Source: a bacterium (lineage in GTDB: Bacteria > Electryoneota > Electryoneia > Electryoneales > Electryoneaceae). Taken from it: a DNA stretch of 64,000 nt. The position numbers and the translations under genes are program-made. The stretch is taken from the NCBI GenBank assembly GCA_963669175.1, contig OY769902.1, forward strand, positions 288,001 through 352,000. Reading direction: 5' to 3'. The notes beneath the pieces are model-generated. The model saw only the letters and a program-made list of their open reading frames with translations. It searched no databases and was not told the DNA's origin. Position 1 is the first letter of the stretch, and each line of letters begins with the position of its first letter. Below are positions 12,178 through 64,000 of this stretch, piece by piece.

Positions 12178-12232
12178 ATCGTTGCCTCCTTGTTCAGCGT
12201 CTCACGTTAGTGACGTTCACCGCGTCGATCCG

Positions 12233-13219
12233 TTAGAAACGGAAGTGGACGCTGAATCGGTGGACGTAATCCAGTATGTAGTAATCGCTTACGGCATAAT
12301 CGATACCGAAGCCCTTCCACTCGGCGCCCACACCGGCCGACAACCCGAGCGTGTCATGGTTGAACGTGTATCCACCGCGCAGGTAGAACATCTTGTTGAA
12401 GCCGTATTCAGCCCCAAGATTGATGCGTTCAAGGTTGTCGTTGGGATGTTCCAGGTCCGCAGCGATCTGCAATACATGCGGCCCCTGGTTGTAGGGTATG
12501 GCTGACAATCCCATTTTGAAGGTCATGGGATACTGGTAGGGCAGGTAATCAGTCTGTGATGCTGAACGCTGGCCGTTATCATAGTCGTAGTAACCGCCGC
12601 CAAGCTGAACTTCCGGTCCAAAGTTGCGGATGTTCATGCTCAACATGACCGTCTTCCACTTCGTATCGTACATCGTGCCAACATCGACAACCCAGTTGGT
12701 AGCCACGCTACCGTCCAGGTCTTCACTGACTACCTTGAGATTAGCGCCGAAACTGAATTTGTCTGTCAACCTGGTAGCTGCTGAAACACCGGCAAGAAAG
12801 TCGGTCACTTCGAAATACTGGCCTGTACCTTCCGGCTGCATAACGGTTGTGCGTTCTATCTCGCCTGAATTCAGGGACGCTGCGAAAGCGCCCAAGGCCC
12901 AGCTATCGTTAAAACTGTGGCTTCCGGCGACAATACTGTAGTTGATGTCTGCCAGCCACTGAATATGTTCCACCATCACCCTGCTGTTCGTAGCATATAC
13001 CAACCCGGCAGGGTTCCAGAACATGCTTGTTTCATCATTACTGATCGCACTGAACGCATTCCCGATGCCGACACCCCTTGCACCGATCGGGATGTTCAGA
13101 AACAGGGTTCCGGCAGTTCCGACTTTGGCAATGTCTCCGCTTTCTGCCAATGCCACGCCGCCGGATGCGAACAGGATCGCCAACCCGATGGCGACGGCAT
13201 GCTTCAAAAGTGTACGCAT
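12233..13219 (-). CDS. PorV/PorQ family (UPF0164) outer-membrane beta-barrel
   Basis: FLNIPIGARGVGIG..A..FWNPAG motif; C-terminal Phe. Confidence 0.85.
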   Translation of the reverse strand: MRTLLKHAVAIGLAILFASGGVALAESGDIAKVGTAGTLFLNIPIGARGVGIGNAFSAISNDETSMFWNPAGLVYATNSRVMVEHIQWLADINYSIVAGSHSFNDSWALGAFAASLNSGEIERTTVMQPEGTGQYFEVTDFLAGVSAATRLTDKFSFGANLKVVSEDLDGSVATNWVVDVGTMYDTKWKTVMLSMNIRNFGPEVQLGGGYYDYDNGQRSASQTDYLPYQYPMTFKMGLSAIPYNQGPHVLQIAADLEHPNDNLERINLGAEYGFNKMFYLRGGYTFNHDTLGLSAGVGAEWKGFGIDYAVSDYYILDYVHRFSVHFRF

Positions 13220-13242
13220 GGTGTTCTCTCCTTTTCCGGCGG

Positions 13243-15717
13243 TTATCGCTTAATGAGGAATTTGCCGATGTGCTTGTCTCCATCGGGCGTTTCCACGACG
13301 TAGATGTACAGACCGGATACAACTTTCTGGTTGTTCCGGCTGATCATATCCCAGTACTCCGCCCCGGAAGTAGCATCCTCATGCTCAATTTCCTTGACCA
13401 GGTCGCCAGTCAACGTGAAAATGCTGATCTTGCACAACGGTGGCAGGAAGAAGAACGCCAAACGGTCTTCGTAACGGGATTCGAACAGGGCTGTACCTTC
13501 GTACGGGTTCGGCACGACCCTGACATCACTTGCTTTGCGGGGAGTGCCGTCATAGCCGTCATCCATCGTACCGGTTCCGTCATCAGTTTTGACGATTGCA
13601 TCCGGACGCGGAATAACCGGGTCCGGTGCGCCGGCAAGCGTCTTGCGGTAGTTTGATTTGGCAGACTCAATGGAAGACAGCCCGAAAGTAGCGATTTTGT
13701 CCGGGTCGTAGGCGACTACCGTGTAGTAGTACTTCAACCCGTTAACCGGTTCCGGAATGTCATGGAAGAATGTGATCGGGTTGCCGGATTCATCAACACC
13801 CATGAAATCGCCACCACGATCCGTGTAGGTATTGCGGACATCCGGTAAATCAACCAGGACGGTATCGTAGCCACCAGCCGCGATCGCTTCCTGGTAACCA
13901 TCTTCGAAATACGTGATAAGTTCACCGTTCACCCGGATCGGATTCACCATGTTTCCGTCCGTATCCTTTAAAAGAACGGGTTCATCGCGATTGTCGAAGG
14001 CGGCGATAATCTGCATGTTCTGCGCGTTGTACAAAGACCGGTATACCTTATAGCCTTCAAAGTCCACCGCGCCCAGGAAATTATCGATCTCGTTCTCCGC
14101 CGACTTGTCCCAGACCATATCCACGGCACGATCGGCGCCTGAATAATGCAAATCAGGAATAGGCGGTGGAATCGGCAGCAGGAAATGTTTGTCGGAGGCA
14201 ATGGCCTCATTGCTTGCCCCGGTAAATCCGGCTTGCGCTTCCACCGGGGATATAACCGGATCGCCAATCAGTGAATCAGGGCCCTGGTAATACGCGATGA
14301 CCGCGTTATCCAGGATTTCACGCATCCCCCCAATTCCCTTGCCAATACCGGTCACCATGACGAACTTTTTCGTTTCGCCATCCGCCCAACTGGAGAAGGG
14401 ACCGCAGGAAAGCATATAGCGGTAGTCGAATACTGGCGCGCCCGCTCCGTAGCGGAAGGGGTGAGGCATGAACTTGATCCCGTTCGACAGCGAATGGGTT
14501 CCTGTCATGTATTCGTACTTTTCACGATCACTGCCCGGGTCTGATTCCCAGTTCCACCACTGGTGGGAATAGGGACGGGGCATGGTGTCGTCTTCAGTGA
14601 GATAGAAAGGATCCTGCGGGATGTAAATCATCCGGGTTCCGATGAAACCGTCAACCGGCGTGGCATATGTTCTTTCACCGGTATCGTTTTCACCACTCTG
14701 CGGATAGTCACCGTCATACATGTAGCTGGTATTACGGCTGATCAGGTATCCCTTGAGTGTATCTCCGGTCGAAGCCTTTATCAGAACCTGGCCGTCAAAA
14801 TCGGTTCCCGGCTGACCGTAAATGGCGGGACCGTCTTCCACTTCATAAATCTGGTATTCATCCCAGACACCATCCGGTTCCGGGTCAAAGGACTCGGGCA
14901 TGTCTGCGTCTTCATACCCGTTTACGTATGGATTGAAAGGATTGGCCCGTTCCCAGCCCCAGACATCGTAGCCGGTATCGCCATCGTTGTCGAGATCAAG
15001 CGGGTCTACCCAGTCCTGGGTGAACATGTTTTCTTCTGCACCGGTCGCGGAACGCGCCCAGCCATCGTAATCCACCAGGTCGTCAATGTTCGGCTGATCC
15101 GGGTCGCCGCCCTCGCCGGCGCCGCAGTCATTGTCAAAAACCCACGTGACAAAAGCGCCGTTGATCGTGCCACCACTGACATTTTTCACTTCCATCAGAA
15201 TGACGAAGAAGTCGTCGTATTCCGGGATAGACCAGGTCAGCGCACGCTGGCTCATCTCGAAGCCAATCGGCGTATGACCGGAATAGTCCGTCATGTCATC
15301 ATAACGAACCCAGCCATCAAGAATGGACTTCGGACCGGCGCCGAAGTAGTAATACGATCCTTCGGTCGGGTCCAGCTCGTAGTTGCCGTAGTCTGCATGG
15401 CTGCAAAGGGGCTCACCGCCCACCAGCGCCGCAATCCAGAAACGACCTTCCCAGATATAGTTGATCGATGACCCACCCGGCCATTCACCGGAAGGCAGGT
15501 TCTCGTTCGGTTCACCGTAGTTCCCGAAATTGGAGATCGCTGTCCACAGGTTGCCTACGTCATGGACCTTGTACGTAGGATTGGGACGTGCAGATGTCTC
15601 CCTCACCGGTCCCTTGGGTCCACCCGATCCGGGCAGGACCGCCGCGATCAGGGGGGCGCTCAGGAGAAGGAGCGCAACGGTCACGGCGACAAGCGTGCGT
15701 AAACGCAAAGAATTCAC
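13243..15717 (-). CDS. secreted protein with variant T9SS-type CTD (TBDR/PorV-associated)
   Basis: GTG start after GGGGAGG; HDVGNLW..ISNFG N-terminus; DFEGYKVYRS; VVPNPY...GKFLIKR C-terminus. Confidence 0.75.
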   Translation of the reverse strand: MNSLRLRTLVAVTVALLLLSAPLIAAVLPGSGGPKGPVRETSARPNPTYKVHDVGNLWTAISNFGNYGEPNENLPSGEWPGGSSINYIWEGRFWIAALVGGEPLCSHADYGNYELDPTEGSYYYFGAGPKSILDGWVRYDDMTDYSGHTPIGFEMSQRALTWSIPEYDDFFVILMEVKNVSGGTINGAFVTWVFDNDCGAGEGGDPDQPNIDDLVDYDGWARSATGAEENMFTQDWVDPLDLDNDGDTGYDVWGWERANPFNPYVNGYEDADMPESFDPEPDGVWDEYQIYEVEDGPAIYGQPGTDFDGQVLIKASTGDTLKGYLISRNTSYMYDGDYPQSGENDTGERTYATPVDGFIGTRMIYIPQDPFYLTEDDTMPRPYSHQWWNWESDPGSDREKYEYMTGTHSLSNGIKFMPHPFRYGAGAPVFDYRYMLSCGPFSSWADGETKKFVMVTGIGKGIGGMREILDNAVIAYYQGPDSLIGDPVISPVEAQAGFTGASNEAIASDKHFLLPIPPPIPDLHYSGADRAVDMVWDKSAENEIDNFLGAVDFEGYKVYRSLYNAQNMQIIAAFDNRDEPVLLKDTDGNMVNPIRVNGELITYFEDGYQEAIAAGGYDTVLVDLPDVRNTYTDRGGDFMGVDESGNPITFFHDIPEPVNGLKYYYTVVAYDPDKIATFGLSSIESAKSNYRKTLAGAPDPVIPRPDAIVKTDDGTGTMDDGYDGTPRKASDVRVVPNPYEGTALFESRYEDRLAFFFLPPLCKISIFTLTGDLVKEIEHEDATSGAEYWDMISRNNQKVVSGLYIYVVETPDGDKHIGKFLIKR

Positions 15718-15739
15718 AATAAGTTCCTCCCCCACAAGT

Positions 15740-18700
15740 TTAGAAGTCAAACCCTATACCCATTTGGAACATGCGACCACGCTGGTAATACTGCGGGTCG
15801 TTGTACTTACCGTCCACATCGTAATCCGGGGTGCCATCGTTGTCGGCATCGTTCTGAGTGTACCACGCAGTATCCGCGTTCGTCTGGAAGTACCGTTCAT
15901 CTATGTTCTTCCGGTCAAACAGGTTGTAGACCTGCAGGTACACGTACATCCCGAAATACTGAGAGAAGTTGTGACGTTTCTGGATACGAGCGTCAAACGA
16001 CAGCGTGTAGGGAAGCCGTTGGTCGTTGATGGGTGGATCCTTATCCTTGGCAGGACTGGAGTAGGGTAACCCGCTGCCATAACGTCCAATCAGGGATAAG
16101 CTGACTTGCTCAAGTGGTTTGTCAAGATAAGAATACCCAGAAATGCGGGTATTCTTGGGAATCATGAACATGATGTTTCCGTACACGGTATGGCGCTGAT
16201 CCCAGTCGAGATAGCTTTCCGTGGTACGGATAACATTGCCGGCCCAGGCGTTTTCGTAATTCTGACGTGCGCTTGAAGCCTTACCCTTGGCAATCGAATA
16301 GCTGTAGCTGATGTTCGTAGAATAGAAGCTGCTGAACCGTTTTTCCAGGCTCAACTCGAAACCACGCACATTGCCGTAGTCAAGGTTGATGTACAGGCCA
16401 TACCAGTTGCGTTCGTTGTAGAACACCTGGCGTGTATCGGTCAAGCCGGTGATATCCTTGTAAAAACCGGTCGCTACGATAGCCGTGTTGGGATTGAACT
16501 GGTGACGCAGGGTCAGCTCGTAAGCTGTTGTGCGTTCCGGTTCAAGGTTCGGATTCCCGACAATCGGGAAGGCGCCGGAAAAGTCCCAGTTCACATTCGT
16601 AAACGCGAAGTTAAGAATCGGAATCTGGAAGTTCTTGCTGTAGTTGAACGACAGCAGGTCAAACTCGGTAATCGGGAAAGCCACACCCAAACGTGGTCCC
16701 CAGTAATACTTGGGATCAATACTGGTCGGATCTTTCACCTCACCGCCGATGCTGGCATCTACTACCGGGTCGGTAATGTCGGCCGGATAATCGCTCCAGT
16801 TGATGTCGAAGACATCCAGACGGACACCGGCATTAATAACCATGCCTTCAAATTCCATCTTGTCTTCAGCCCAGAAACCATATAACCGTGGCTTCGCCGA
16901 GAAGTTCTGACCATACACATTCCCGCCGGATGCCATATCGACATCATGGTCAAACAGTTCCATGAATTTCAATTCAAAACCGGCCTTCATCTGATGGTAC
17001 TTGTGCATCTGGCTGGTAATGGAACCGTTGAAGGTATTGATGATCTTGTAGTCGTTGTTCCAGCGGGCACGGTTGTAGGTCAAACCGCTGCCATAGGTGT
17101 AAAAATCATCGTTGTCCTTGGAATTGCCAAACGGCACGTCTTCCCAGGCCATCCATGTGCTCACAGCGCCCTTCTCTGAAGCATCGATGTAACCGTTGTC
17201 ATTGTCATCGGTAAAGAGATCATGCCTGGGGCCATATACATCCCAGTCCCAGATCTGGTTACCGTTCAGATCTTCATATTCATACACACCATTCTGGTTG
17301 AAGTCGAAGTAGTAGAAAGAAACCTTGTCATCCACTTCTTCGGCAGCGAGGTAGTTGCTGAACATGCCGAGTGAATCTGCGGGGATATCGTTGATGTCGG
17401 TATAACGAGGTTCAAGATCCAGCTCGCCGTTACCATTCGCATCCTCATTTATATATTCGTTGGTGTTATAGTGCATTTCGGTTTTATAACGAGAATAACC
17501 CAGTTCGTAGAAAGTTTTCTGGTTCAACGTGTGATTCCACTTTACCGCTAATTGCTCCGTATGATGAGTGAAGAACGGAACATGGTCCAGCATACGGAAA
17601 GCATCCAGGTTGTAATTGGAGTTCAAGTCTTCTGTATCCACCACCCCATCACCGTCGAGATCAACTTCATTGCCGTCAATGATCCCGTTGTGGTTCAGGT
17701 CTTCCGTGTCCACCTCGCCGTTGCCATACCATGGATCGCCGTTTGCATCCAGGTAAACATAGCCGGGGTCAAGGGTAGTACCGTCAGCCAGATAGGATGG
17801 CTGGTATTCCAGGAGGGCATCTTCGTTGGTGGTTTTGCTCCACATGTGGTTGTAATAACTGTACTGGGCGTTCGACACTGTACCACTGAAGGTCAGCTTC
17901 AGTTTTGGTGTGATCTTGTAGGTCAGCTTGGCGAAACCACTCGTAAGCGTGGAGTCGTCATTGTCGAAACGTCCACGTGTGTCGAAGTACTGACCGGACA
18001 TCAGGAAATACAGCTTGCCGGCATCCTTGAAGAAAGGAATCGGGCCACTGAGAGATCCCTGCCAGTCCTGTAGCCTGTCACGTTCGCCGATGAAGGTCTG
18101 GCCACCGCCCATGTCATTGGTACGAAGCGACATGTTGCCGTTAATACGATCGCTGCCTTCTTTGGTTACCTGGTGGACAACACCGGAAAGCGCATTGCCG
18201 TATTCTACAGACTGACCACCGGTGATCACACTGACTTCTTCGAACGCGACAGCAGGAACAAACCCTTCATAGGTTCCTGTCATCGGATCGATAAACGAAG
18301 CGCCGTCAATGATGTAGTTGACCTCTGTTGCACGACCACCGCGGAAATTGGCCCCGACAGCGCCAACGGTCAGCTTGACCACTTCTTTGATGTTCTCGAC
18401 CGGCAACATCGCCAGGTCTTCCGAGGTACGTGTGGTACGGCTGTCCGTAGCATCTTTGCGGATCATGGGACGTTTTGAAACGTAAACCACTTCTTCCGCT
18501 TCAATCACGGTTGCTTTTAGTTCGAAATCCACGCGTGTGGTTCGGTCCGTAGCCACATCAACATTGCTGTATGTGACCGCCCCATGTGTCACTTCGGAAG
18601 CTTTTACTTCGTAGATTCCCGGTGGAATATTCAGAATAAAGAACAACCCATCCAGGTCCGATGTAGCTCCCATAGTCGTGCCGAGAATCACCACATTGAC

Positions 18701-18832
18701 CATGGCCAGTGGTTCTCCCGTATCGGCATCAACTACCTTTCCAACGATTTTCCCTGTACCGGCCGCCAGGACGACTCCGCTCAGGCATAGAAGTACAAGG
18801 AGAACAGAAAACGAGTAGCGCAAACTTCTCAT
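15740..18832 (-). CDS. TonB-dependent receptor with carboxypeptidase-regulatory-like N-domain
   Basis: GKIVGKVVDADTGEPL, RGGRATEVNYIIDG plug, GNPNLEPERT, C-terminal F; start 18832 or 18853. Confidence 0.9.
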   Translation of the reverse strand: MRSLRYSFSVLLVLLCLSGVVLAAGTGKIVGKVVDADTGEPLAMVNVVILGTTMGATSDLDGLFFILNIPPGIYEVKASEVTHGAVTYSNVDVATDRTTRVDFELKATVIEAEEVVYVSKRPMIRKDATDSRTTRTSEDLAMLPVENIKEVVKLTVGAVGANFRGGRATEVNYIIDGASFIDPMTGTYEGFVPAVAFEEVSVITGGQSVEYGNALSGVVHQVTKEGSDRINGNMSLRTNDMGGGQTFIGERDRLQDWQGSLSGPIPFFKDAGKLYFLMSGQYFDTRGRFDNDDSTLTSGFAKLTYKITPKLKLTFSGTVSNAQYSYYNHMWSKTTNEDALLEYQPSYLADGTTLDPGYVYLDANGDPWYGNGEVDTEDLNHNGIIDGNEVDLDGDGVVDTEDLNSNYNLDAFRMLDHVPFFTHHTEQLAVKWNHTLNQKTFYELGYSRYKTEMHYNTNEYINEDANGNGELDLEPRYTDINDIPADSLGMFSNYLAAEEVDDKVSFYYFDFNQNGVYEYEDLNGNQIWDWDVYGPRHDLFTDDNDNGYIDASEKGAVSTWMAWEDVPFGNSKDNDDFYTYGSGLTYNRARWNNDYKIINTFNGSITSQMHKYHQMKAGFELKFMELFDHDVDMASGGNVYGQNFSAKPRLYGFWAEDKMEFEGMVINAGVRLDVFDINWSDYPADITDPVVDASIGGEVKDPTSIDPKYYWGPRLGVAFPITEFDLLSFNYSKNFQIPILNFAFTNVNWDFSGAFPIVGNPNLEPERTTAYELTLRHQFNPNTAIVATGFYKDITGLTDTRQVFYNERNWYGLYINLDYGNVRGFELSLEKRFSSFYSTNISYSYSIAKGKASSARQNYENAWAGNVIRTTESYLDWDQRHTVYGNIMFMIPKNTRISGYSYLDKPLEQVSLSLIGRYGSGLPYSSPAKDKDPPINDQRLPYTLSFDARIQKRHNFSQYFGMYVYLQVYNLFDRKNIDERYFQTNADTAWYTQNDADNDGTPDYDVDGKYNDPQYYQRGRMFQMGIGFDF

Positions 18833-19464
18833 GAGGCCACCTTTCCGTAACATGAAATGACCCTGTAAAGAAAAAAACTGGCTTAAATCACCTGGACTAA
18901 ACGGTGATCACCTGTAATGCAGGGAAAAGGGGGAGGCGTGTAGCGAAATAAAGCAAGTGTGCAGGAGGTGCATTAAAATAATACACCCCTGAAAACAGAG
19001 TGAAGCAGCAAATCAGGGCGCGTCTCGTCAAACTCTTAAAAAACAGGCGCACTTGTCCTAGCAGTCGCTTCCTCCAGTCGCCGGCAAAACTGGTATAAGC
19101 TTTGCTCAATAGTTTTTGGGTATGTCTGTCTTGTCAGCAAGCACCAACCATTAATACTTTACTAACGTGAATCCAGCAAATCAAGTGGTTTAATACAATA
19201 TTAACAGAAAGTAATTCCTGTGTCTGGTTTTTTCCCCAACCTTGTTTTTATTCTTCCCTGTTGCCACTTTATACCCTAAGTTATTGATAAATAATCAACT
19301 TTGGGGAAAGTATCATTTTGAGCACTTCGACACTGCCATTCTCTGTCTCACAAACAGGAACATACCTTTCATTTTTAACGTGGAGCTTTTGACAGAAAGT
19401 TTCTGTATATTGCTTACCACTTGAGTGTCAAAGAAACATCAGGATCATTTGCAAACATTGTCCG

Positions 19465-21579: not shown

Positions 21580-24500
21580 CTACCGTTCTTTCACTTTCAC
21601 GATGATCTCAGTAATCACTGTTCCGGAATCCAGCCCGGTGCCGTCATCCACGGTCAGTTTTACCCGATAGACACCTGTTTTGGCGAAAGCATGACGCACA
21701 CGTGAACCTGTCCCTGTGGTGCCGTCACCGAAGTCCCAGGCATAGGTCAGCGGGTTGCCATCAGGGTCGTACGTGTCCCTGGCGTCGAACAGGATTTCTT
21801 CATCCGCGCCTCCGGCCCGGGCGATACGGTCCAGCGAGCCAACTTCAACAACCGGTGAGGTGTTCACTTCGACCATTACCGTATCGGATACGGTTGCACA
21901 GATGGTCCCGGAATTGTCAGTCACCGTCAATACAGCCGTGTACAGGCCGGTCTTTTCATATTCGTGGGTGACAACCATACCTTCCGCGCCGGTGCCGTCC
22001 CCGAAGTTCCATTGGTAGCTGGTGAACAGTCCGTCGGGATCATGGGAAATGCTGCCGTCAAAAGTCGCCTTTTCTTTCGGGCTGATGGCGAAGTCTTTAC
22101 CGGCATAAGGGATCGGCGGCGTATTCACCAGCACCACTTTTACCGTCTGCACCTTGCTGTTGCCAACCTGCTTGCCATCATCCACGATCAGGCTGACAAG
22201 GTACATTCCCGGACGTTTGAAACTGTGGGAAACTGCACGTCCCTCGGCTTTGGTGCCGTCCCCCATGTCCCATTTCCACGCTACCAGGTCTTCCGCGCCG
22301 GTCGCGTCGTGAAAGCTCAGCTCTTCCCCGGCGCAGGCGACTCGTGGACCGACAATGGTCGGTTCTGGTGTGGGGTTGACCGTCACAACAACTGTATCCA
22401 TATCCCAATTATTGGACACATCGGTATTGTCGGTCACATGCAGCAACACAATATACTCGCCGCTCTGCGCGTAGCTTTTCCGTAAACGAATATTGTTCGC
22501 CCTGGCGCCATCGCCGAAATCCCATTCGTAGCGGGTGATGGTGCCGTCGGTATCTTTCGAAGCGGTGGCGTCAAAGATGATTTCCTCACCGATGCCGACA
22601 AAATGATCCTCACCTGCCTGTGCATCGGGCCGAGCATTAACCGTAACCACCTGCTGCGCCACACTACGGTTGCAGCTCGCTTTCGAGCTGGTGGTCACGG
22701 TCAGTGAAGCGTAATACACACCCCACTTTTCGTAGGTATGCGATACAATGTCGCCTTCCCCACGAGTACCATCACCCAGGTTCCATTCATAGGAGATAAT
22801 CTCGGCGCCGCCACTGGTGGACTGACCGCCGTTAAACGTCACCGGTTCTTTATTGGCTAACAGTTCCGGCACTTCAATAATGGCCGCCGGGGCTTCGTAT
22901 ATGGTCACTGAAACTTCATCGGTTGACGTATTGTCGCATTCACCCATACGGTCGCCGGTAACATTCAGCAGGACACGATACTCCCCGGCGGATTTGTAGG
23001 TATGCGTAGGTGTCGGCCCCAGCATGGTGGAACCGTCCCCGAAATCCCAGTGATACTCGTTGACCAGGCCATCGGAATCGTAGGAACGGGTGCCGTCGAA
23101 TCGGATTTCCGTATTCGCGCAGGCCACAATATCCGGCCCGGCATCCGCTACCGGGGATTCACCCACGTCAACCGTAATCTGATCTGATGCACGGTTACAC
23201 TCCAGCCCTGACGCATCTTCAACAGTCAAAACCACCTGGTAGGTTCCGCCACGTTCGTAGCGTTTTGCCGGGTTCACGCCACGCGCCTGGGTGCCGTCTC
23301 CGAAATCCCAGAAATACTTGAGCGGCCCGCCTTCAGGGTCTATGGAATAGCTGCCGTCAAAGAATATCATTTCCCCGGCACAGGAGTTGATCGAACCTCC
23401 AGCATTGGCGACTGGCGGTTGATTGATCGTTGCAATCAATGAAGAAACAGCGACAGAGTTTTCCAGCTTTGCGCCGTCGTCAACGGTCAAAGTTACCGGG
23501 TATTTACCACCCCTTTTGAAGGTATGGGTGACCTTCACCCCACGTTCACTTGGGCTGTCATCCCCAAAATCCCAGGTATACAGCAGGTTCTGGCCATCAG
23601 GGTCCATTGACGCGCTACCGTCGAAGGTGAGTGTCATCTGGCAGGTTTCGATATCCGGCCCCGGCTTGGAGATCGGCGAAGAATTAATCAGAATCTCAAT
23701 ACGGTCCTGCGCAGTACTGTTCGCAACGCCGGCATTATCCACCACGGTAAGGGTTGCGGTATACAAACCGCCCCGTTCGAAGGAACGCTTGATCTTCGCG
23801 CCCTGTGCCGAACCTTCTCCATCGCTGAAATCCCAGTAGAATGCAACCAGTTCGCCATCGGGATCATAGGAACGACGCGCGTTAAACGTCATCTCCACAT
23901 CGGGTGAACTGCTGCGGTCGCCACCGGCATTGGCTATCGGGGCTTCGTTGACTACAACATAGGTCTCGTCAATTCCCCACGCTTCCTCGTGGCAGGTGTT
24001 GTCCCGCACTGTCAGCATCACCGTATAACTGCCCGGCTTGTCATAAACATGTACCGGTGTGGGTGTGCCTTTGATTTTGGAAGTCGATGAAACGGTTGCC
24101 AGGTTGGGTTCAGCCATCGGTTCGGGTTCTGCAGCCACACTGTCGGAAACACTGACTGTTGTATCAGTAATGCCCGCGACGGTATCCGGCACAACCACTT
24201 CGGACGAATCGGGAATTTTCTCTTCAGTTTCAGGTGGCGCGGCATCGGTCAGGGATGTCGTGCCATCACCATAATCCCACTCCCAGCAGATGATTTCACC
24301 ATCCGGATCAATAGAGGCTGTGCCATCAAAATGGACTTGCTGTCCCGGCGCGACTACCTGGTTGGCCCCGGCATCGGCAAGGGGCTGATGGTTCACCTCC
24401 ACATTCATCTGGGCGCTGGTCTTATTCGTGGACGTGCCAGAATTATCCGTAACTGTCAGCGTAATGGTGAATACACCCGGGTTGCGGTAGGTGTGTATCG

Positions 24501-26607
24501 GCGATGCTTCTTCAGAAGTCCGTCCATCACCGAAATCCCAGAGATACGCAACAATCTCGCCATCAGGATCGTAGGATCTGCTTCCATCAAAGTTCAACTG
24601 GCTGGATGTCACCAGGGTGTCATTGCCCGGAACCGCCACCGGGGGTTCATTAATGCGAACGACAATGCTGTCTATGGCTGTATCGGTTGACGTTTTTGAA
24701 TCATCCATGACCGACAATGCGACGCGGTATTCACCCGGTTTGGCATACACATGGGTCAGGCGTGGCCCGATTTTCACATACCCATCACCGAAATCCCACT
24801 GGTAGGAGACGATACGGCCATCACGGTCAAATGATGCCGTCCCGTCAAACTCCAGCTCTTCCCGTGCGCTGCCGACCTTATTGCTTCCTGCTACCGCGAC
24901 CGGTTGATTATTGACGTGCACTTCCATGGTATCGCGCGCAACGCTGTTGCCCGTGGCGGCGTCATCTTCCACGGTACAGATCACAAAATACTTGCCCGAT
25001 TTGTCATAGACATACTGGACTTGCTGTCCTTCCAGCACTGTGCCGTCACCCATATCCCAGCGATGTACGGAAATCACACCATCAAGATCCTGCGACAATT
25101 CCGGGGTGAAGATCAGCGTATCACCGGGCGATGCGGTGCGATCTGCTCCGATATTCAGGATCGGTGCAGCGTTTACTGTGACTGTCAACGTATCTGAATC
25201 ATTATTGCAGGGATGCCCGGAGGTATCTTCCACCTTGAGCACCACGGTATATTTGCCGGGATTTTCGTAGGAATGGACGGTTTTTTCGCCCTCGCCATAC
25301 TCCCCATCCCCGAAACTCCAGGTATAAATCAGGCTGTCCCTGTCTGCGTCTGACGAAGCGGAAGCGTTAAAACCAAGTGGCTGTCGTGGCGGGGTAAGCA
25401 GGTCAATGCCTGCATCGGCTACCGGGGGATAATTCACATGGACAAGAATCTCGTCACGAGAGCTGTTGCCCACATGACCCGATTCATCGCTGACAAGCAA
25501 CTCAACATAATAATCGCCTGGTCCGCCGAAATCGAAGGTTGTGCGCATCCCGGTTGCCGTTGCGCTGTCGCCGAAAAACCAGGTGAATTGCATCGGGTCA
25601 CGGTCTTTATCCACTGTGCGGGAAGCATCCAGCATCATTGAACGGCAATCCGCCATCGGCTCGATTTTGTAGGCAATCTCAGGACGATGATTGCGTACCC
25701 TGAGCCGAATCGGCAACTCGATGGGAAGCGTCTTGCCCTGGTTGGTGGTCACGTAAAATGTGGCGTCATTGGGCATCTCTTCGCCGCCCTCGAACGCCAA
25801 CGCTCCATAAACACCTTTTTCACGTTCAATCAGCTCAACCGTACTCTCTATCCATTCATCCTGCCCCGAGGGGGCCACCACCAGCGAGGAACGGTACTTC
25901 GTTTCCACCGTCATATCTGCGCCGGTCAGGTCAAAATTGTGTACGGTCACCGATTCAATGGAGTCCGGAATACGGAATTTCATTTCCGCGAACACACCAC
26001 GCCAGGGCAGGCGAATGGTGGGTGCATACGTGATCATGGAAACGCCGCTTACCGGTTCACTGCGCTTGGGTTTACGGCTGAGTTCCACGTTATAGATGTT
26101 CGCATCATCCCCGGCCACACCCTGCACAACAAGTTTGAACGCACGCTTGCCATCCACCTCTTCACCCTGCGAAGGGCTGAACTGTACTACCGGTTGCCAG
26201 GTTTTATCGATGAAAGGTTCATCTTTGAAGGTGTGATCGTACAATAACTTCCCGGATGTCAGAACACTTTCTGAAGGGTTGGGGCTGTCGCAACCAGGGC
26301 AGGTCGCTGCCGATTCACCTCCGTAGAAAGCGAATCGTGTCTGGGTATCGTAAAGCTTGTAATAGCGTGAATCATCATTGCCGCCACAATCAGGATCATA
26401 AATCCGCAACCACAGGCTGTCCGTCACATCGGCGGGTACATAGAAGTAAAATACCTGGGTAAAATCGTCATCACCCTCTTGCGTACCGGCTTGGGGTCCA
26501 TAGGTGACAAAGTTCGCAATTTCGTCGGCAAACGCAGGCATCCCAACTGTCAGCAGAATGCCGACAAGCAGGATAAGAATTGCGTTATGTGCCAACAGGC
26601 GTTGCAT
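21580..26607 (-). CDS. secreted PKD-repeat protein (15 PKD domains)
   Basis: Signal peptide; 15 W-x-F/M-G-D-G-type motifs counted. Confidence 0.9.
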   Translation of the reverse strand: MQRLLAHNAILILLVGILLTVGMPAFADEIANFVTYGPQAGTQEGDDDFTQVFYFYVPADVTDSLWLRIYDPDCGGNDDSRYYKLYDTQTRFAFYGGESAATCPGCDSPNPSESVLTSGKLLYDHTFKDEPFIDKTWQPVVQFSPSQGEEVDGKRAFKLVVQGVAGDDANIYNVELSRKPKRSEPVSGVSMITYAPTIRLPWRGVFAEMKFRIPDSIESVTVHNFDLTGADMTVETKYRSSLVVAPSGQDEWIESTVELIEREKGVYGALAFEGGEEMPNDATFYVTTNQGKTLPIELPIRLRVRNHRPEIAYKIEPMADCRSMMLDASRTVDKDRDPMQFTWFFGDSATATGMRTTFDFGGPGDYYVELLVSDESGHVGNSSRDEILVHVNYPPVADAGIDLLTPPRQPLGFNASASSDADRDSLIYTWSFGDGEYGEGEKTVHSYENPGKYTVVLKVEDTSGHPCNNDSDTLTVTVNAAPILNIGADRTASPGDTLIFTPELSQDLDGVISVHRWDMGDGTVLEGQQVQYVYDKSGKYFVICTVEDDAATGNSVARDTMEVHVNNQPVAVAGSNKVGSAREELEFDGTASFDRDGRIVSYQWDFGDGYVKIGPRLTHVYAKPGEYRVALSVMDDSKTSTDTAIDSIVVRINEPPVAVPGNDTLVTSSQLNFDGSRSYDPDGEIVAYLWDFGDGRTSEEASPIHTYRNPGVFTITLTVTDNSGTSTNKTSAQMNVEVNHQPLADAGANQVVAPGQQVHFDGTASIDPDGEIICWEWDYGDGTTSLTDAAPPETEEKIPDSSEVVVPDTVAGITDTTVSVSDSVAAEPEPMAEPNLATVSSTSKIKGTPTPVHVYDKPGSYTVMLTVRDNTCHEEAWGIDETYVVVNEAPIANAGGDRSSSPDVEMTFNARRSYDPDGELVAFYWDFSDGEGSAQGAKIKRSFERGGLYTATLTVVDNAGVANSTAQDRIEILINSSPISKPGPDIETCQMTLTFDGSASMDPDGQNLLYTWDFGDDSPSERGVKVTHTFKRGGKYPVTLTVDDGAKLENSVAVSSLIATINQPPVANAGGSINSCAGEMIFFDGSYSIDPEGGPLKYFWDFGDGTQARGVNPAKRYERGGTYQVVLTVEDASGLECNRASDQITVDVGESPVADAGPDIVACANTEIRFDGTRSYDSDGLVNEYHWDFGDGSTMLGPTPTHTYKSAGEYRVLLNVTGDRMGECDNTSTDEVSVTIYEAPAAIIEVPELLANKEPVTFNGGQSTSGGAEIISYEWNLGDGTRGEGDIVSHTYEKWGVYYASLTVTTSSKASCNRSVAQQVVTVNARPDAQAGEDHFVGIGEEIIFDATASKDTDGTITRYEWDFGDGARANNIRLRKSYAQSGEYIVLLHVTDNTDVSNNWDMDTVVVTVNPTPEPTIVGPRVACAGEELSFHDATGAEDLVAWKWDMGDGTKAEGRAVSHSFKRPGMYLVSLIVDDGKQVGNSKVQTVKVVLVNTPPIPYAGKDFAISPKEKATFDGSISHDPDGLFTSYQWNFGDGTGAEGMVVTHEYEKTGLYTAVLTVTDNSGTICATVSDTVMVEVNTSPVVEVGSLDRIARAGGADEEILFDARDTYDPDGNPLTYAWDFGDGTTGTGSRVRHAFAKTGVYRVKLTVDDGTGLDSGTVITEIIVKVKER

Positions 26608-56356: not shown

Positions 56357-57403
56357 ATGCAGGCAGTATACTACATCGGTCTGGACGTACACAAGAAGAA
56401 GATTGCGTATTGTATTCAAACGTCGGCAGGTAAGATAGTTGACCAGGGCATGGTTGCATCCACCCGTCCTGCTCTTTCAAACTGGGTTGCGAAGTTACCG
56501 ACTCCCTGGGCGGCGGCGATGGAAGCGACGTTGTTTACAGGCTGGATTTATGATTTTCTGAAGCCGCATGCATCGGCACTGAAGGTGGCACACCCGGCGA
56601 TGCTGAAGGCGATTACGGCGGCGAAGAAAAAGAATGACAAGGATGACGCCAAACGTATCGCAGATCTGCTCCGTATCGACCTGTTGCCGGAATGTTACAT
56701 GGCACCATCAGATATCCGTGAGCTACGCCGTGTGCTGCGATTTCGCAACAAAATCGTCCGGCATGCCGTGAGCCTGAAGAACAAGACGGCCGGATTACTG
56801 ATGGAAGTGGGCGCTGAGTATTCGAAAAGGCGTCTACATGGCAAACGCTACTTCCATGAATTGCTCATTGAACTTGATACGCTGGATGAGATTCCGACCA
56901 CTGTGGTTGAGATGTTGCGAATGAATCGTGCCGGCCTTGAGCTGTTTGAGACGCTGCAACTTCAACTGGTTAAGGCGCTGGCTACGCATTCGCTGTTGGC
57001 AGATCGGGTGAAGTTGTTGATGACGATCCGTGGCATTGGTGTGATGACCGCGCTGACATGGGCGTTGGAAGTGGGTGAAGTGGAACGGTTTGCCAGTATT
57101 TCCAAGGCAATCAGTTACTGCGGTTTGTGTAGTGCGCAGCAGGAATCAGCGGGAAAAACGAAACGGGGACCGTTGTCCAAGAAACGAAACAAACATTTGC
57201 AGACGAAACTGATCGAAGCGGCGAAGCTGGCGCCACAGTGGCATCCAGAGCTGCAGATTGTGCATGACCGTGAACTGGCACGCAGCAATCCCAACCGGGC
57301 AACATTAGCGGTAGCACGAAAGCTGGTAGCTTATCTGATGGCGGTTGATCGACGGGGAACGCCGTTTGTTCAAGCCGACACGACAACAGAACTTGTAAAC
57401 TAA
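56357..57403 (+). CDS. IS110-family DEDD recombinase/transposase
   Basis: IGLDVHK, MEAT, KNDKDDA (DEDD); IRGIG; ESAGK serine motif. Confidence 0.95.
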   Translation: MQAVYYIGLDVHKKKIAYCIQTSAGKIVDQGMVASTRPALSNWVAKLPTPWAAAMEATLFTGWIYDFLKPHASALKVAHPAMLKAITAAKKKNDKDDAKRIADLLRIDLLPECYMAPSDIRELRRVLRFRNKIVRHAVSLKNKTAGLLMEVGAEYSKRRLHGKRYFHELLIELDTLDEIPTTVVEMLRMNRAGLELFETLQLQLVKALATHSLLADRVKLLMTIRGIGVMTALTWALEVGEVERFASISKAISYCGLCSAQQESAGKTKRGPLSKKRNKHLQTKLIEAAKLAPQWHPELQIVHDRELARSNPNRATLAVARKLVAYLMAVDRRGTPFVQADTTTELVN

Positions 57404-57831: not shown

Positions 57832-59859
57832 ATGACACGGAAAACGGGACGATCCATCTTACCGGCTTTGATTCAGACCCATCCCGCCTGGGTTCTCTTC
57901 GGGATTGCTTTGTTGCTCCGCATCGTCCAGCTCGTTTTCGTATATCGCCAACCCGGTTTCGATCTTCCGATTGTTGATGAAGTCCATTTTGACATCATGG
58001 CCCGCAACCTCGCGGACGGCACTACGATGCATGACGGTCCCTTCTTCCGTCCGCCGCTCTGGTCCATCCTGCTTGCCGGCCCCTACAAACTATTTGGTCA
58101 GCATTTCTTTCTGGCGAGGTTCCTGAACACCATTCTTGGTTCGCTTGCGGTAACGGCTTCCTTTCGCCTTGGCAAACGTCTGTTTCATCAGCGTGTCGCC
58201 TTTACCGGTGCATTGATCTTTGCCTGCCAGGGGTTCTTCATCCATAACAGCACAACCGGGCTGGCTTCCACCCTGCTGGTCTATCTCAGCCTGGAAGCGT
58301 TGCAGGTTACGTTGTATGCTCGCAATCAAAATCGCCTTCGATACTGGCTTATTGCCGGACTACTGTGGGGACTTGCTGCCATAGCCAAACCGGTCGTGCT
58401 GGTGCCGGTGGTTGTCATTCTCTGTGATACCTTGTTCCGTAAAACAGCAACCGCCGGGTATCGTCAAAAAACGGCCGCGCTGTTTGTGCTTGGGCTGTTG
58501 TTGCCCATTATGCCTGTGACCCTGCGAAACTCGATTTCCGGCGATGCCGTCCTGGTATCTTCCAATGGCGGAATAAATTTGTATATGGGCAACAACGAAC
58601 AGGCGAATGGCGTCATCGTGTTTCATCCTGTCCTTGGCGTGGGCTGGACCGAGACCAATGCGCACTCGTGGGCGGAATCGGAAACCGGATACATGATGAG
58701 TCCGTCCGAAGCTTCATCGTGGTACACACAACAGGCGGTGCAGTTCTGGTTCTATCAGCCCAAACGTGCCTTCAAGCTGATACTGGATAAAGCCTATTAC
58801 ACATTCTCCGGGTTGATCTTCACCAACAATGGGAATCTCGGCTTTTACGCAAAGAGCAATCTTCTTTTACGGTCACTGCTTCCCCTGGGTTGGGGCGCTG
58901 TTTTCCCATTCGCATTGGTCGGCATGGTTCTCGCCTTCCGCAGGTCCGGCAATCATCGCTTGACGATGCTGGTAGCTTTCAGTTACCTGGGAATCTGTAT
59001 TCTCTTTTTTGTGCTGGCCCGTTTCCGGCTTCCAGCGGAAGGTATCCTGGTTCATTTCGCGGCATACACCGGGTGGTTCCTGCTGGGGCGCGAAGAAGTA
59101 ACTCAACAGGCTTCCGGAAAAATTCGCCTGCTGATATCGCTGGTTGTTGTTCTCCTGGCTTTGCCGGTGAATATGAACCTGAAGGGGATGAGCCGTTCCA
59201 TTGATTATGCTCACAGTTATTACCTGAATGGTCAGCTCCTGGCTCGTGAACACCGTTACTCGGAAGCGGCCCAGGCATTTCGTGACGCTATCGCACTGAA
59301 TAAGCGTATCCCACTCAGCTACCTGTATCTCGGGCAGGTTATGATGAAAATGGACAGCACAGAGCAGGCCATAAATTATTTCAAGCATGAAATCGCCACC
59401 TTGCCGAAAACCCAGTATTTCTCTGACCTGGTACTAAATGCTCAAGCCAATCTTGGACGCGCGTATATGAAGGTCGGCGATAAAGCGGAAGCGGAGCGAA
59501 CTTTCCGGGAGGCGCGTCAAATCTATGGTGGTGATCCCGGGGTAAATAAATACCTTACCAGTCTCATACTGGAGCGTACACGTGAAAAGCTAGTGCAAGA
59601 CGACTGGAACACAGCGCTTGAGAACCTTGAAGAAGCTGCCACTATCAACCCAAATGAACCGGCGCTTGCGTTTGCTTTTGCGGTAGCACGGTTCCATACC
59701 GGAAGCCCTGAGCACGCGAACCACATTATGGCTATCATCCTGAAGCATCACCCGGATTACTCGCCAGCTCAACGATGGCGGGATCAGGAGTGGCGCCCCG
59801 ACAGCCATGATATCCAGGAGCTGTTGCTCCCCTTCCTGGATGATGGCGAAAAAAAGTGA
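57832..59859 (+). CDS. GT39/ArnT/PMT-like membrane glycosyltransferase with C-terminal TPRs
   Basis: IVDE..F, FRPPL, NGGINLYMGNN, ARFRLP; TPR tail. Confidence 0.8.
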   Translation: MTRKTGRSILPALIQTHPAWVLFGIALLLRIVQLVFVYRQPGFDLPIVDEVHFDIMARNLADGTTMHDGPFFRPPLWSILLAGPYKLFGQHFFLARFLNTILGSLAVTASFRLGKRLFHQRVAFTGALIFACQGFFIHNSTTGLASTLLVYLSLEALQVTLYARNQNRLRYWLIAGLLWGLAAIAKPVVLVPVVVILCDTLFRKTATAGYRQKTAALFVLGLLLPIMPVTLRNSISGDAVLVSSNGGINLYMGNNEQANGVIVFHPVLGVGWTETNAHSWAESETGYMMSPSEASSWYTQQAVQFWFYQPKRAFKLILDKAYYTFSGLIFTNNGNLGFYAKSNLLLRSLLPLGWGAVFPFALVGMVLAFRRSGNHRLTMLVAFSYLGICILFFVLARFRLPAEGILVHFAAYTGWFLLGREEVTQQASGKIRLLISLVVVLLALPVNMNLKGMSRSIDYAHSYYLNGQLLAREHRYSEAAQAFRDAIALNKRIPLSYLYLGQVMMKMDSTEQAINYFKHEIATLPKTQYFSDLVLNAQANLGRAYMKVGDKAEAERTFREARQIYGGDPGVNKYLTSLILERTREKLVQDDWNTALENLEEAATINPNEPALAFAFAVARFHTGSPEHANHIMAIILKHHPDYSPAQRWRDQEWRPDSHDIQELLLPFLDDGEKK

Positions 59860-59955
59860 AAACTTGCGGATCAGGATTGTGCAGCCAGCTTTACCACACG
59901 TAGTTTCCTTTTTTCCAGAGTCGGAATTCTTAAACAGTTAAACCGGGAGGCAGCC

Positions 59956-61995
59956 ATGATCAAACGGCTACTGATGGGTACCCTGGCAGTGGGACTGCTT
60001 GCAGGATCGCTTTACGCATTTCCGAGGAAAATCCTCATTGAAGAATTCAACGGGCATGGCTGAGGCAGTTGCAATCCAGCATCGGTGATGCTGCACGATT
60101 TTGTAACGAATGAGGATTATGCCGATCATGTCACGACCGTCGTTTACCATGCCTACTCTGACCCCTGGTACAACATTAACGGCGATGATCATGATACCCG
60201 CTTCCAGTATTATAGTGTAACCGGGATTCCTTCGGTTCGACTTGACGGTATCCTCGGTAACTACCTGCTGAGCGCTTCAGACCTGACAACCCCTTACGGA
60301 CAACGCTACAATGTGGAGAGTCCACTTTCCATTAGCATCATGTCCATCAACAATGAAGATGAGATTAATGTAACCGCTCTGGTCACCAGTGGAGACGAAG
60401 AAGTACCTGCCAACCTGAAGATCCGAATGGCGCTGGTCAGCCTGTTTTACGACAACTTCACCGGCAACAACGGGCAGTCTGAATGGCATTGGGACATGCT
60501 GGACATGGCGCCCGATGCGGCAGGCCAGGACTTTGAAATCGGCCTGAACGAGACGGTTGAGTATTCCGCCACTTTCCCCTGGCCATTCACCCTGCAACAG
60601 GATGAGGTCGCTGAGGATAACGCCAAGATTGTGGTCTGGGTGCAGAACGATACCAACCACGAAGTGCTTCAGTCTGAATGGGCTGAGATTGGCGGTGGGT
60701 ACATGTTTGAAGCTGAACCCGGCCTGACCGAGAAACTGGTTGCGCCAGGGAGTGAAGCCGAGTTTTCCTTCGACATCACCAACACCGGTATGATGGAAGA
60801 TACTTACGATATCGCTATCACTTCCGGCCTGCTCGAGGATTGGTCCTATACTTACACAACTCCCGATGGCGAACAGAACGCTCCCGCCAGCATGACCCTC
60901 GCACCGGAAGCGACCTTTACGAGCACGGTTACCCTGTCCACAGCAGCCAATATACCGGCGTCTCAAGGCTCCATTACCATCACCATCACCTCGCAAAATA
61001 GCCCATTTATAAGTTGCGAGATGACATTTTACGCCATGGCCAACGGGCAGATCCTGGTGTTGAACGGGGACACCGAAGGACGCTATTCAGAGTACTACAC
61101 CAACGCCCTTCATGAAGTCACCCTGATTGAGGAGCTGAATGAAGATCTGAACTATTCGGTCTGGACTGCTGCCGAGCATCCTTTCCACGCTGGCGACCTG
61201 GACGAGGCAACGCCGGAACTGGTGATCTGGTACGTGGGCGGTGAGGGCAACATCACGGACGCTGATGAAACCGGCCTGATGAGTTACCTGGATGACGGCG
61301 GTTCGTTGTGGATCACAGGTTCATCAGCAGCCGTAGCCATGGACGGTGGCGACCTTATAGGGTATATGGGCGCCAGCTTCCAAGATCATTACTCCCGCGG
61401 TTATAACGTACATGGCGAAGAAGGCGATCTCTATTTTGACGGGTTGGAAACACCGATCATGGAAGGTGATGGCGCGGATAACCGAGGCGTCCCCAGCGCC
61501 CTGTACGCGACCGATGACGGCACAGTCTGCCTGATGTATTCAACAATCCGTGTCGCCGGGATTCGTCGCAGCGCCGATACATACAACACCCTGCTGTTCG
61601 GCTTCCCCTTCGAGGCTATCGCGTCACAGGAAGCCCGGACGACCTGTATGCTGGATGCGCTGCATTTCCTGATCGACTTTAACAATTTCCACGGCATCAC
61701 AGACACACCGGATCTGCTGCCGTCAGCTTTTAGCCTGCAACAGAACTACCCGAACCCGTTCAACCCGGAAACGGAGATCCGGTTCACGTTGCCTGAACGT
61801 GCGATGGTTCACCTCGCAGTCTTCGATATTACGGGGCGGGAAGTTGCCAGGTTGACAAATCGTCATTTCGAAGCGGGTCAACATTCTCTGCACTGGAACG
61901 CTGCCGACCAGGCCAGCGGTGTCTATTTCCTGCGCATGACTGCCATCGGAAACACACCGTTTGAGGCAACCAGGAAGATGGTGCTGGTGAAGTAA
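59956..61995 (+). CDS. Omp28/thioredoxin-like secreted protein with T9SS CTD; probable selenoprotein (UGA = codon 36)
   Basis: GGGAGG RBS + ATG 59956, signal peptide, KILIEEFNGHG-UGA-GSCNP in frame with ORF 60085-61995; GIPSVRLDG; QNYPNPFNP CTD. Confidence 0.85.
60068..60107 (+). promoter_or_regulatory. bacterial SECIS-like hairpin
   Basis: CAGCATC-GGT-GATGCTG apical stem-loop 20 nt after UGA, with lower stem GTTGCAA/TTGTAAC. Confidence 0.7.
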
Positions 61996-62030
61996 GGCTG
62001 TATAGATAATACTGGTGAAACACTATACTG

Positions 62031-62062
62031 CAACGGGACTGTCCCTTGGGATGGTCCCGTTG
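62031..62062. terminator. hairpin (terminator or GGGAC REP-like)
   Basis: CAACGGGACTGTCCC-TT-GGGATGGTCCCGTTG. Confidence 0.55.
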
Positions 62063-62234
62063 TTATAACAGGTTTTTACGGCCATACGTATGCGTCATTG
62101 TTGACATGGCGAGCAGCAAAACAACAAATATTTCAGAATTCCTTAAAAGGTTTGTCAGATATACTTTACTTACAACTCCCCCTGGTGTACATTGGAAAAA
62201 AATTCTACCATCAAGAAACCGTATGGAGTACAAA

Positions 62235-64000
62235 ATGCGAAAAACTCATATCGCTATATGTTTTGTAATCCTCTTTGGAAGTGTCGCTTTCTCCCAGGAG
62301 CAGGATACACTTTGGTCTCAAATCTGGGGAGTAGGGTTCTGCGATCATGCTAATGATGTTGACCAGACAATGGATGGAGGATTTATTGCATTTGGAAGCC
62401 ATTATAATGATCGGGAGGGTGTAATCGTCAAGTTTGACAGCCTTGGCGAAGCGGAATGGTATCAGGATTTTGTTGCCGGCACCGGTAACTGTGGCTTTCA
62501 ATCCGGTCAACAAACTTCCGACGGAGGCTTTATTTGTGCAGGAAGCATCTACGATCAAATATTATATTACGATTTCTGGCTGGTAAAAACAGATGATGAA
62601 GGCGTTCTGGAATGGGAACAAACTTATGGCACTAACACCAGTGAAGAGTGCAATTGTGTACAACAAACCACTGATGGTGGTTATGTCCTTGCGGGATACG
62701 TGGGATCGGCACATTCAGATTGGTGGCTGATAAAAACAGATGAAGACGGCGAAATAGAATGGGACCAGACATATGGAAACGAATCCACTGATAAGTCTTA
62801 TAGCGTCAAACAAACGAATGATGGCGGTTACATTCTTACAGGTTTTTCCTATATCACCGACGAATCTAATTGTAATCTCTGGCTGTTAAAAACGGATTCC
62901 GAGGGAAATCAGGAGTGGTTGAGTGAATTCGGGATATCTGCTGATGATGCTAATGATTATGGATACGATGTTATTCAGACCTCTGATGGAGGATATGCGG
63001 TTATTGGTGAAACCCGATCGTATGGCGCAGGCGGTAGTGATGCCTGGTTAATTAAAACAGATGAAGACGGCTTAGAGGAATGGAATCAGACATATGGTGG
63101 TGAAAGGACCGAAAGTGGGAATTCACTTCAACAAACATTAGATGGTGGTTTCATCATTGCCGGAGATGGGATGCCAGCCGATATCGGTGGCAGCGATTTC
63201 TGCGTCATTAAAACCAATATGGAAGGTGAAGAAGAATGGAGTCATTCTTACGGCGCAGGGCAAATTGAACGAGCACTTAGTGTTGAGCTTACCACCGATG
63301 GCGGATTTATCGTTTCCGGTTTTACCAATAGTTTTGGAGTTAATGGAAGTGATATGTGGTTGTTTCGTTATGAAGGATTGCTTTCGCCCACTCCTTTTCA
63401 TTTGCTGACTCCAACAGATGCTGAATGGCTAACGATTAATGATACTACTGAAATTCCGTTTTCCTGGGGAATTTCCTCAAGCCTGAACCCTGATGAAACT
63501 GTTGCATTTGATCTCCATATTCATGCTGGATATGGCGACATCGACAGTCTGACTTCTATCAGGGATATCGTGGAAACTGATACAGCCCTTACGGTGCAAC
63601 AGCTTCTTGGTTTGGAATACTGGGATTCGGCTATTAATTGTTCATGGTATGTTGAAGCGATTGCCGGGATGGATACAACTTCATCCATGGATACGTTCAG
63701 TTTCCGCATCATGCCTCACATTTTTGATTATCCGCCATCCGAGTTTACGCTGCTTTCCCCTGAAGATGACGCTTTGATTGAGGTTGACGAATCATTAGTC
63801 ATCGATTTCGCATGGCAGTCCTCAACAGATCCCAATCCGGACGACACAGTTGTATACGATGTCATCATTCACGGTTTAGGCAGTGGTATTGACAGCACAA
63901 CTTACCTTGAGGCTCAAACTGATACTACTCTATCACTTACGGTTACTGAACTCATGGGATTAATCAACTGGGAAACCACACTTGCTTTTGACTGGTCAGT
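62235..64000 (+). CDS. secreted beta-propeller protein (QTxDGG repeats) with Fn3-like modules; runs off the window
   Basis: GGAG RBS, MRKTHIAICFVILFGSVAFSQ signal, repeated W..TYG / QTxDGGY / D.WL.KTD; absent from ORF track because no stop codon. Confidence 0.8.
   Translation, partial: MRKTHIAICFVILFGSVAFSQEQDTLWSQIWGVGFCDHANDVDQTMDGGFIAFGSHYNDREGVIVKFDSLGEAEWYQDFVAGTGNCGFQSGQQTSDGGFICAGSIYDQILYYDFWLVKTDDEGVLEWEQTYGTNTSEECNCVQQTTDGGYVLAGYVGSAHSDWWLIKTDEDGEIEWDQTYGNESTDKSYSVKQTNDGGYILTGFSYITDESNCNLWLLKTDSEGNQEWLSEFGISADDANDYGYDVIQTSDGGYAVIGETRSYGAGGSDAWLIKTDEDGLEEWNQTYGGERTESGNSLQQTLDGGFIIAGDGMPADIGGSDFCVIKTNMEGEEEWSHSYGAGQIERALSVELTTDGGFIVSGFTNSFGVNGSDMWLFRYEGLLSPTPFHLLTPTDAEWLTINDTTEIPFSWGISSSLNPDETVAFDLHIHAGYGDIDSLTSIRDIVETDTALTVQQLLGLEYWDSAINCSWYVEAIAGMDTTSSMDTFSFRIMPHIFDYPPSEFTLLSPEDDALIEVDESLVIDFAWQSSTDPNPDDTVVYDVIIHGLGSGIDSTTYLEAQTDTTLSLTVTELMGLINWETTLAFDWS

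Follow-up and report, generated by a model that had tools for sequence, protein, structure and literature searches.

Thioredoxin chemistry proceeds through two active-site residues, the first of which attacks a disulfide while the second, a cysteine, resolves the mixed bond. A member of this fold that is displayed outside the cell is HBP35 of Porphyromonas gingivalis. According to the accessible text of PMC2907840, HBP35 reduces insulin through its CxxC motif, an activity lost when both cysteines are changed; it binds hemin through its later, non-thioredoxin part and helps growth in low hemin; and complementation of an E. coli dsbA mutant by hbp35 has been reported. The Por system carries HBP35 to the surface, as stated in the available portion of PMC3120885. 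A second group of relatives consists of selenoproteins. GOS_C was described in 2008 as a thioredoxin-like UxxC family (Zhang and Gladyshev, PMC2398784), a signal peptide being unmentioned in the accessible text, and a 2026 review, available in part, equates this UxxC family with the NCBIfam model NF045500 (PMC13188914). The model itself is named ‘Omp28-related selenoprotein’.

The gene described here lies in a window of 64,000 nucleotides, the whole stretch analysed, from a member of the Electryoneota (assembly GCA_963669175.1, contig OY769902.1, positions 288,001 to 352,000). A Shine-Dalgarno-like GGGAGG (59945-59950, + strand) stands 5 nt upstream of the ATG at 59956, from which the frame continues on the + strand to a TAA stop ending at 61995, giving 679 residues when the single in-frame TGA is read as selenocysteine (Sec). 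Translating 59956-61995 with TGA as U yields exactly one U, at residue 36, in the local motif EEFNGHG-U-GS-C-NP. The active site U36-G-S-C39 thus occupies 60061-60072 (+), with the TGA at 60061-60063, and is placed between a signal peptide and a T9SS-type C-terminal tail. The signal peptide (residues 1-21; 59956-60018, +), with predicted cleavage after LYA, was called by eye, hydropathy and family conservation, a similar leader being present in the family rows. A preliminary description of this DNA, made from its letters, had given the ribosome-binding site, start, signal peptide, TGA and full-length frame, and all were recovered. It had also placed the stop at the first Cys of an Omp28-type EEFTxxWCxxCP motif; the column is the right one, but the Trp that usually precedes the attacking residue is absent from the window motif, and no Pro follows Cys39 directly.

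The same description had expected standard gene callers to cut the gene, as they do. In a plain list of open reading frames with stops respected, the gene begins only past the TGA, at GTG 60085, and the public protein has 635 aa and is missing both the signal peptide and the active site; the public call for a close relative (P0008) is shortened in the same way. Because the public call starts past the TGA, the database protein is without its entire front end, and such genes consequently look like function-less ‘T9SS domain proteins’. Beyond the stop codon, a strong hairpin (62030-62071, -25.6 kcal/mol) is probably a terminator. An Rfam search of window positions 59700-62300 returned no match, and promoter matches at the gene were at chance level.

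We consider it almost certain that the in-frame TGA encodes selenocysteine. This reading rests on the machinery of the genome, the alternation of Sec and Cys at one column, the enrichment and covariation of a SECIS hairpin, and the agreement of assemblies from three samples of one study. The genome (a single contig of 5.45 Mb, 96% complete) contains all four sel genes that the preliminary description had proposed to look for: tRNA-Sec (selC) is present, and selA (539 bits), selB (348 bits) and selD (356 bits) are all above cut-off, with selD having its own in-frame TGA. In the phylum, selA is above cut-off in 56 of 61 genomes and in 22 of the 23 genomes that bear TGA copies, the remaining one holding a selA fragment at a contig end; since selA is nearly universal, its co-occurrence with the TGA genes cannot discriminate.

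It is very improbable that the TGA instead arose by nonsense mutation or misassembly or encodes Trp, with the gene broken or starting at 60088. Such a reading would agree with the public call, which starts downstream of the TGA, and with TGA being a normal stop in this genome, the commonest one in coding-like frames of at least 300 aa (785 of 2111). That same count led us to reject a recoding of TGA to Trp. A downstream start would leave the sorting tail without a signal peptide. Sequencing error, also raised in the preliminary description, is opposed by the available contigs: those assembled from two runs of one sample, the deepest runs and possibly the source of the assembly itself, span the gene with zero differences, and two further samples, taken in the same study, yielded short contigs (depth 4) over the TGA codon, likewise with zero differences.

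The family speaks against a broken gene as well. Matches to it occur in 57 of 61 genomes of the phylum, and among the 129 matches listed from these 61 genomes, 45 contain a single TGA, and TAA or TAG occurs in no listed match. We fetched 44 of the 45 TGA matches, leaving out the weakest (70 residues, E 7.6e-4), together with 30 stop-free matches. The TGA falls at the window's U36 column in all 44 fetched TGA copies. At this column the fetched copies comprise 43 UxxC, one C-U-G-G-S (UxxS), 28 CxxC and two without the first Cys, with a partial second copy in the alignment (one row) left out of the counts; because copies were chosen by TGA, the Sec:Cys ratio among them is TGA-enriched. Opposite the TGA, the stop-free relatives therefore carry Cys (28 copies) and not Trp, in line with the Cys/TGA pairs that had been suggested as a check. 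The genome itself has five paralogs, three with TGA (the window gene and those at 360,773 and 1,176,744) and two with TGT in the same column.

With the U36 column removed, Sec and Cys forms are intermixed in a quick tree of 101 rows (13 changes, at least six of them forced), and a careful tree of a 38-row subset, also built without that column, has nine Sec/Cys changes, eight of them forced. A single clade of all Sec forms was rejected on the 38-row tree (p-AU 2e-67). Related sequences are kin, so the family counts are not independent events.

Some copies differ in the active site or its setting. Locus L050 (G009:C17:46500-49300), the C-U-G-G-S form, has Sec at the usual column, directly preceded by a Cys, and a Ser where the resolving Cys would be. 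At L055 (G006:C62) and L060 (G007:C1) the attacking residue is lost (D-x-x-C) or both Cys are lost, and these are likely non-catalytic paralogs. At contig positions 1176696-1181599 (L007, L009, L181), Sec- and Cys-containing paralogs stand in tandem, nearly identical in their C-terminal domains; where a SECIS would lie, the Cys copy retains a stem, possibly a relic, a feature seen in just 2 of the 28 Cys copies, this one included. A pattern scan built on a 12-row alignment, a 70-row alignment being too diverse for this use, found tail-bearing Cys forms also in Ignavibacteria, Bacteroidota and other lineages; Cys is obligatory in one of the two patterns used, and the finding of Cys alone outside the phylum is therefore uninformative on Sec elsewhere. 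A single-protein scan of genome contigs gave 39 pattern matches, of which zero were confirmed. In two archaeal records (L115 and L131, one from Thermoplasmatota) the same CxxC module occurs in proteins of ~990 aa, in which the tail motif is absent.

Bacterial SECIS elements are recognised, as in bSECISearch, as hairpins with an apical G just downstream of the TGA. In the window gene a 7-bp upper stem (60077-60093, +; CAGCAUC-GGU-GAUGCUG) carries a GGU loop at 60084-60086 (+21 to +23), and a bulged lower stem may lengthen the hairpin to 60068-60107. Its energy is -7.8 kcal/mol and the loop G lies 20 nt past the TGA, so the position and loop given in the preliminary description stand; as a structure by itself, however, the hairpin is unremarkable against dinucleotide shuffles (z -0.64 to +0.28). 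What makes it convincing is its context. Resampling of synonymous codons in the window gene produced a comparable hairpin in 0 of 200 cases, the SECIS of the genome's selD has an identical GGU loop at an identical +21, and the family evidence agrees. Of the 221,268 TGA triplets in the genome, only 543 have a compact G-loop stem behind them, and of the 785 long-gene TGA stops none has.

Among the UxxC copies, 26 of 43 have a G-loop hairpin of -5 kcal/mol or lower versus 3.6 expected under synonymous recoding, compared with 2 of 28 Cys copies versus 1.9 expected; the remaining 17 of 43 are without a hairpin under a strict perfect-stem rule. This specificity of the signal to TGA copies would not be expected of a broken gene. 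Covariation was assessed in 18 same-family TGA rows, all such rows except a near-duplicate and the UxxS variant. They share an 8-bp stem with its loop at +18 that is 84% paired (slid controls, 26-47%), and 8 of 8 stem pairs vary on both sides, as happens in 0 of 500 shuffles; the structure was drawn from these same 18 kin sequences, and the control is therefore generous. The window hairpin sits 3 nt, one codon, off the family register. Screening the TGA codons of the whole genome by coding score gave a noisy result from which selD was missing. Two more selenoprotein candidates, at contig positions 4640638 (+) and 1657354 (-), have an 8-bp stem and a 3-nt G-loop as in the family, with sites G-U-GG and UxxC, respectively.

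The redox domain claimed at the outset is backed by both profile and fold search. Residues 22-248 (60019-60699, +) form an HBP35-like module, a thioredoxin fold joined to an Omp28-type β-sandwich, with a predicted structure of pLDDT 96.5. In the fold search it aligns with HBP35 (PDB 5Y1A) at TM 0.78 (E 7.9e-14, 253 columns); HBP35 is also the best structure match by profile (E 3e-8, whole module, positions 1-227), and the next structural matches are Omp28 and thioredoxins. The invariant Pro92 is likely the cis-Pro. An Ig-like β-sandwich spacer follows (residues 249-362; 60700-61041, +), assigned from predicted structure and fold search with weak Pfam Ig matches, and then an α/β domain of unknown function (residues ~364-574; 61045-61677, +), whose sequence matches are non-significant (IFT52, E 0.27); a PDB sequence search with it gave nothing better than E 0.06, and Foldseek only Ig-like and low-TM matches. 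The chain ends in a T9SS type A sorting domain (YPNPFNP ... KMVLVK; 61741-61992, +), which had also been noticed beforehand: residues 598-665 exceed the cut-offs of both TIGR04183 (31 bits; cut-off 23) and PF18962 (31.1 bits; cut-off 27).

Signal peptide and tail make export to the surface of the cell by a type IX system (T9SS) likely, and the genome holds parts of the apparatus. SprA (799 bits) and PorU (689 bits) are above cut-off; directly after porU lies a PorV-family gene (PF19572) of 206 bits, below the NCBIfam cut-off of 250 and above that of Pfam, and the genome has ten PorV-like matches in all. GldK matches only below cut-off. GldM and GldN gave no match in the window genome or in one relative, in a search for which two Bacteroidota genomes were positive and an Ignavibacterium bin negative, and which very divergent forms could escape; across the phylum, 31 genomes searched for GldM likewise gave 0 matches, in a search in which no positive control responded. 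The T9SS of this genome may thus be a reduced one, and the surface export put forward in the preliminary description remains plausible on the components present, with the failure to find GldM and GldN weighing against it, so that the final location may be the surface or the periplasm.

The tail is widespread in this genome. It is borne by 255 frames, 123 of which follow a TGA; among these 123, only the three Sec paralogs have a hydrophobic leader upstream of the TGA and none downstream. Two other observations concern tail-bearing proteins in the window. A run of genes at 7564-18853 (- strand) encodes a TonB-dependent receptor-like protein, a product of 835 aa, a PorV-family protein and a tail-bearing protein of 1537 aa, and may be a dedicated cargo-shuttle unit. 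The gene that follows the window gene (62229-64000 onward; contig 350229-352377) encodes another tail-bearing secreted protein, the tail DNA of which is 82% identical to that of the window gene over 249 nt, the sole long match in the genome; this points to the tail module having been duplicated or converted locally. Upstream lie a PMT-type glycosyltransferase with TPR repeats (57832-59859) and, two genes away, an IS110-family transposase (56357-57403). Elsewhere in the window, a 1675-aa protein with about 15 PKD repeats (21580-26607, -) adjoins a FecR-domain protein.

An unlikely reading is that the protein, though a real selenoprotein, does its work chiefly in the periplasm, or during export, as a folding oxidase or isomerase of the DsbA/DsbC kind, its tail serving only to dock it at the outer-membrane machinery. 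That the canonical motor parts GldM and GldN were not found would fit this, as would the complementation of dsbA by hbp35 reported in the accessible text on that protein, and the 255 tail-bearing frames may need folding help. Against it, SprA is above cut-off in 30 of the 31 genomes of the phylum searched, PorU and PorV are present, and the tail motif is found in 38 of 43 UxxC copies, three of the others being cut by the locus end and two ending without it. Sec, moreover, usually favours reductase or peroxidase chemistry.

We find it improbable, too, that the exported selenoprotein serves mainly in the capture or detoxification of a ligand (heme, metal, peroxide or polysulfide) and not in protein-disulfide exchange. 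Hemin binding by HBP35 and its help in low hemin, both from the partly available PMC2907840, point this way, and so do His45 and Asp49-Pro50 of the family alignment A1, which are nearly invariant. The U/C-x-x-C pair and the likely cis-Pro are, however, invariant in 70 of 70 aligned rows, rows whose selection required the motif. The five paralogs of the genome showed no conserved gene neighbourhood; in particular, heme, metal or TonB neighbours are not conserved beside the window gene or the four others.

The most probable reading, which draws on sequence and predicted structure, is that the gene encodes an exported thiol/selenol-disulfide oxidoreductase of the HBP35/Omp28/GOS_C group. Since the fold is HBP35-like and HBP35 is a T9SS-exported thioredoxin, a surface thiol/selenol-disulfide oxidoreductase is the reading that fits best. 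SelB would read the GGU-loop hairpin and insert Sec at codon 36, a step with strong in silico support, and the signal peptide would bring the chain to the periplasm. By homology, the C-terminal domain would then pass the chain on to the system of SprA, PorV and PorU in the outer membrane, to be displayed at the surface or released. As the fold and HBP35 suggest, the Sec36 selenolate would attack a substrate disulfide and Cys39 would resolve the mixed bond to a selenenylsulfide. The Ig and α/β domains are probably spacer and binding modules, and the most likely substrates would be the cell's own secreted proteins, those 255 tail-motif frames, or external protein disulfides.

A broader proposal can be made only tentatively and seems to us rather doubtful: that an enlarged repertoire of Sec and Cys versions of one thioredoxin-like enzyme covers the surface of Electryoneota, that many Sec/Cys switches have occurred with both forms kept in one genome as a selenium hedge, and that export runs through a stripped-down T9SS having SprA and PorU and no recognisable GldLM motor or GldKN ring. 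If this were true, the family would represent a bacterial selenoenzyme that works outside the cell, on external disulfides or polysulfides, and is carried there by an undescribed secretion variant.

Our literature search found no paper joining Omp28 with a selenoprotein, although supplements of selenoproteome catalogues (deep-Sep, the 2026 review, bioRxiv files) may list members, and nothing relevant on selenoproteins and type IX secretion, in a search that covered subscription journals thinly. On surface-located selenoproteins it returned only a paper on a multiheme selenoenzyme (PMC13510729, available in part). The accessible part of the paper describing Electryonea (PMC9324843) mentions none of T9SS, type IX, seleno or thioredoxin. 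In this context, the gene is a pointer to selenium chemistry outside the outer membrane, on which no paper was found. Reading through the TGA also repairs a systematic annotation error that strips these proteins of signal peptide and active site in public calls. In addition, the natural Sec/Cys paralog pairs, with a hairpin that tracks the codon, offer material for testing what leads to the retention or loss of Sec. The mechanism is not new, as UxxC thioredoxin-fold selenoproteins and a Cys-form surface enzyme are both known.

Compared with HBP35, the window protein has the same plan of signal peptide, thioredoxin-fold domain with the active-site pair (CxxC in HBP35), Omp28-type β-sandwich and C-terminal sorting domain. 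It differs in having Sec for the attacking Cys, in showing 13% identity in the structural alignment and in being ~330 residues longer, through the Ig and α/β domains; its host lies outside Bacteroidota and lacks detectable GldM/GldN, and disulfide reductase activity and hemin binding are known for HBP35 only. The Omp28 lipoprotein family (NF033782, PF11551; PDB 2R2C) matches weakly over the same module (21.6 and 31.1 bits, respectively), below both cut-offs, and unlike that family the window protein has no lipobox and bears Sec and a sorting tail.

With GOS_C/NF045500 it shares a homologous thioredoxin-like domain, UxxC at the same column and a G-loop SECIS. The window protein scores 37.1 bits against NF045500, below the cut-off of 200, and matches only model positions 39-268, the C-terminal third (269-377) being unmatched; seven of seven GOS_C-type controls score 473-594 bits. 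A metagenome motif scan yielded 107 stretches with 81 distinct GOS_C-type genes. Proteins of this type begin with leader peptides, and a T9SS-type tail closes 4 of the 51 copies that are complete (TIGR04183 above cut-off in all four). Tail-extended true members of NF045500 are L197, L200, L209 and L214, and tandem GOS_C pairs occur at L183, L192, L240 and L251. The exported location, which the preliminary description had regarded as unusual for a bacterial selenoprotein, is hence not new: given these leaders and tails, export, even with a T9SS tail, already exists within the catalogued family.

The two are nevertheless distinct in several respects. GOS_C continues into TSP3-like and dockerin-like acidic repeats (the dockerin label being given by eye), whereas the window protein continues into the Ig and α/β domains; the SECIS loop is at +20 in GOS_C, +21 in the window gene and +18 in its close relatives. 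GOS_C forms its own long branch (SH-aLRT 100) and the window protein lies on a separate one in the best trees, with a tree forcing it beside four GOS_C rows not rejected (p-AU 0.117). The existing model is passed in 0 of 79 genomes of the window's phylum, to which the GOS_C/HBP35 selenoprotein group is now extended. Taken together, the evidence gives good support to the window gene being a hidden selenoprotein of a known group, and it probably forms a new branch of it: an Electryoneota, HBP35-like, tail-bearing long form.
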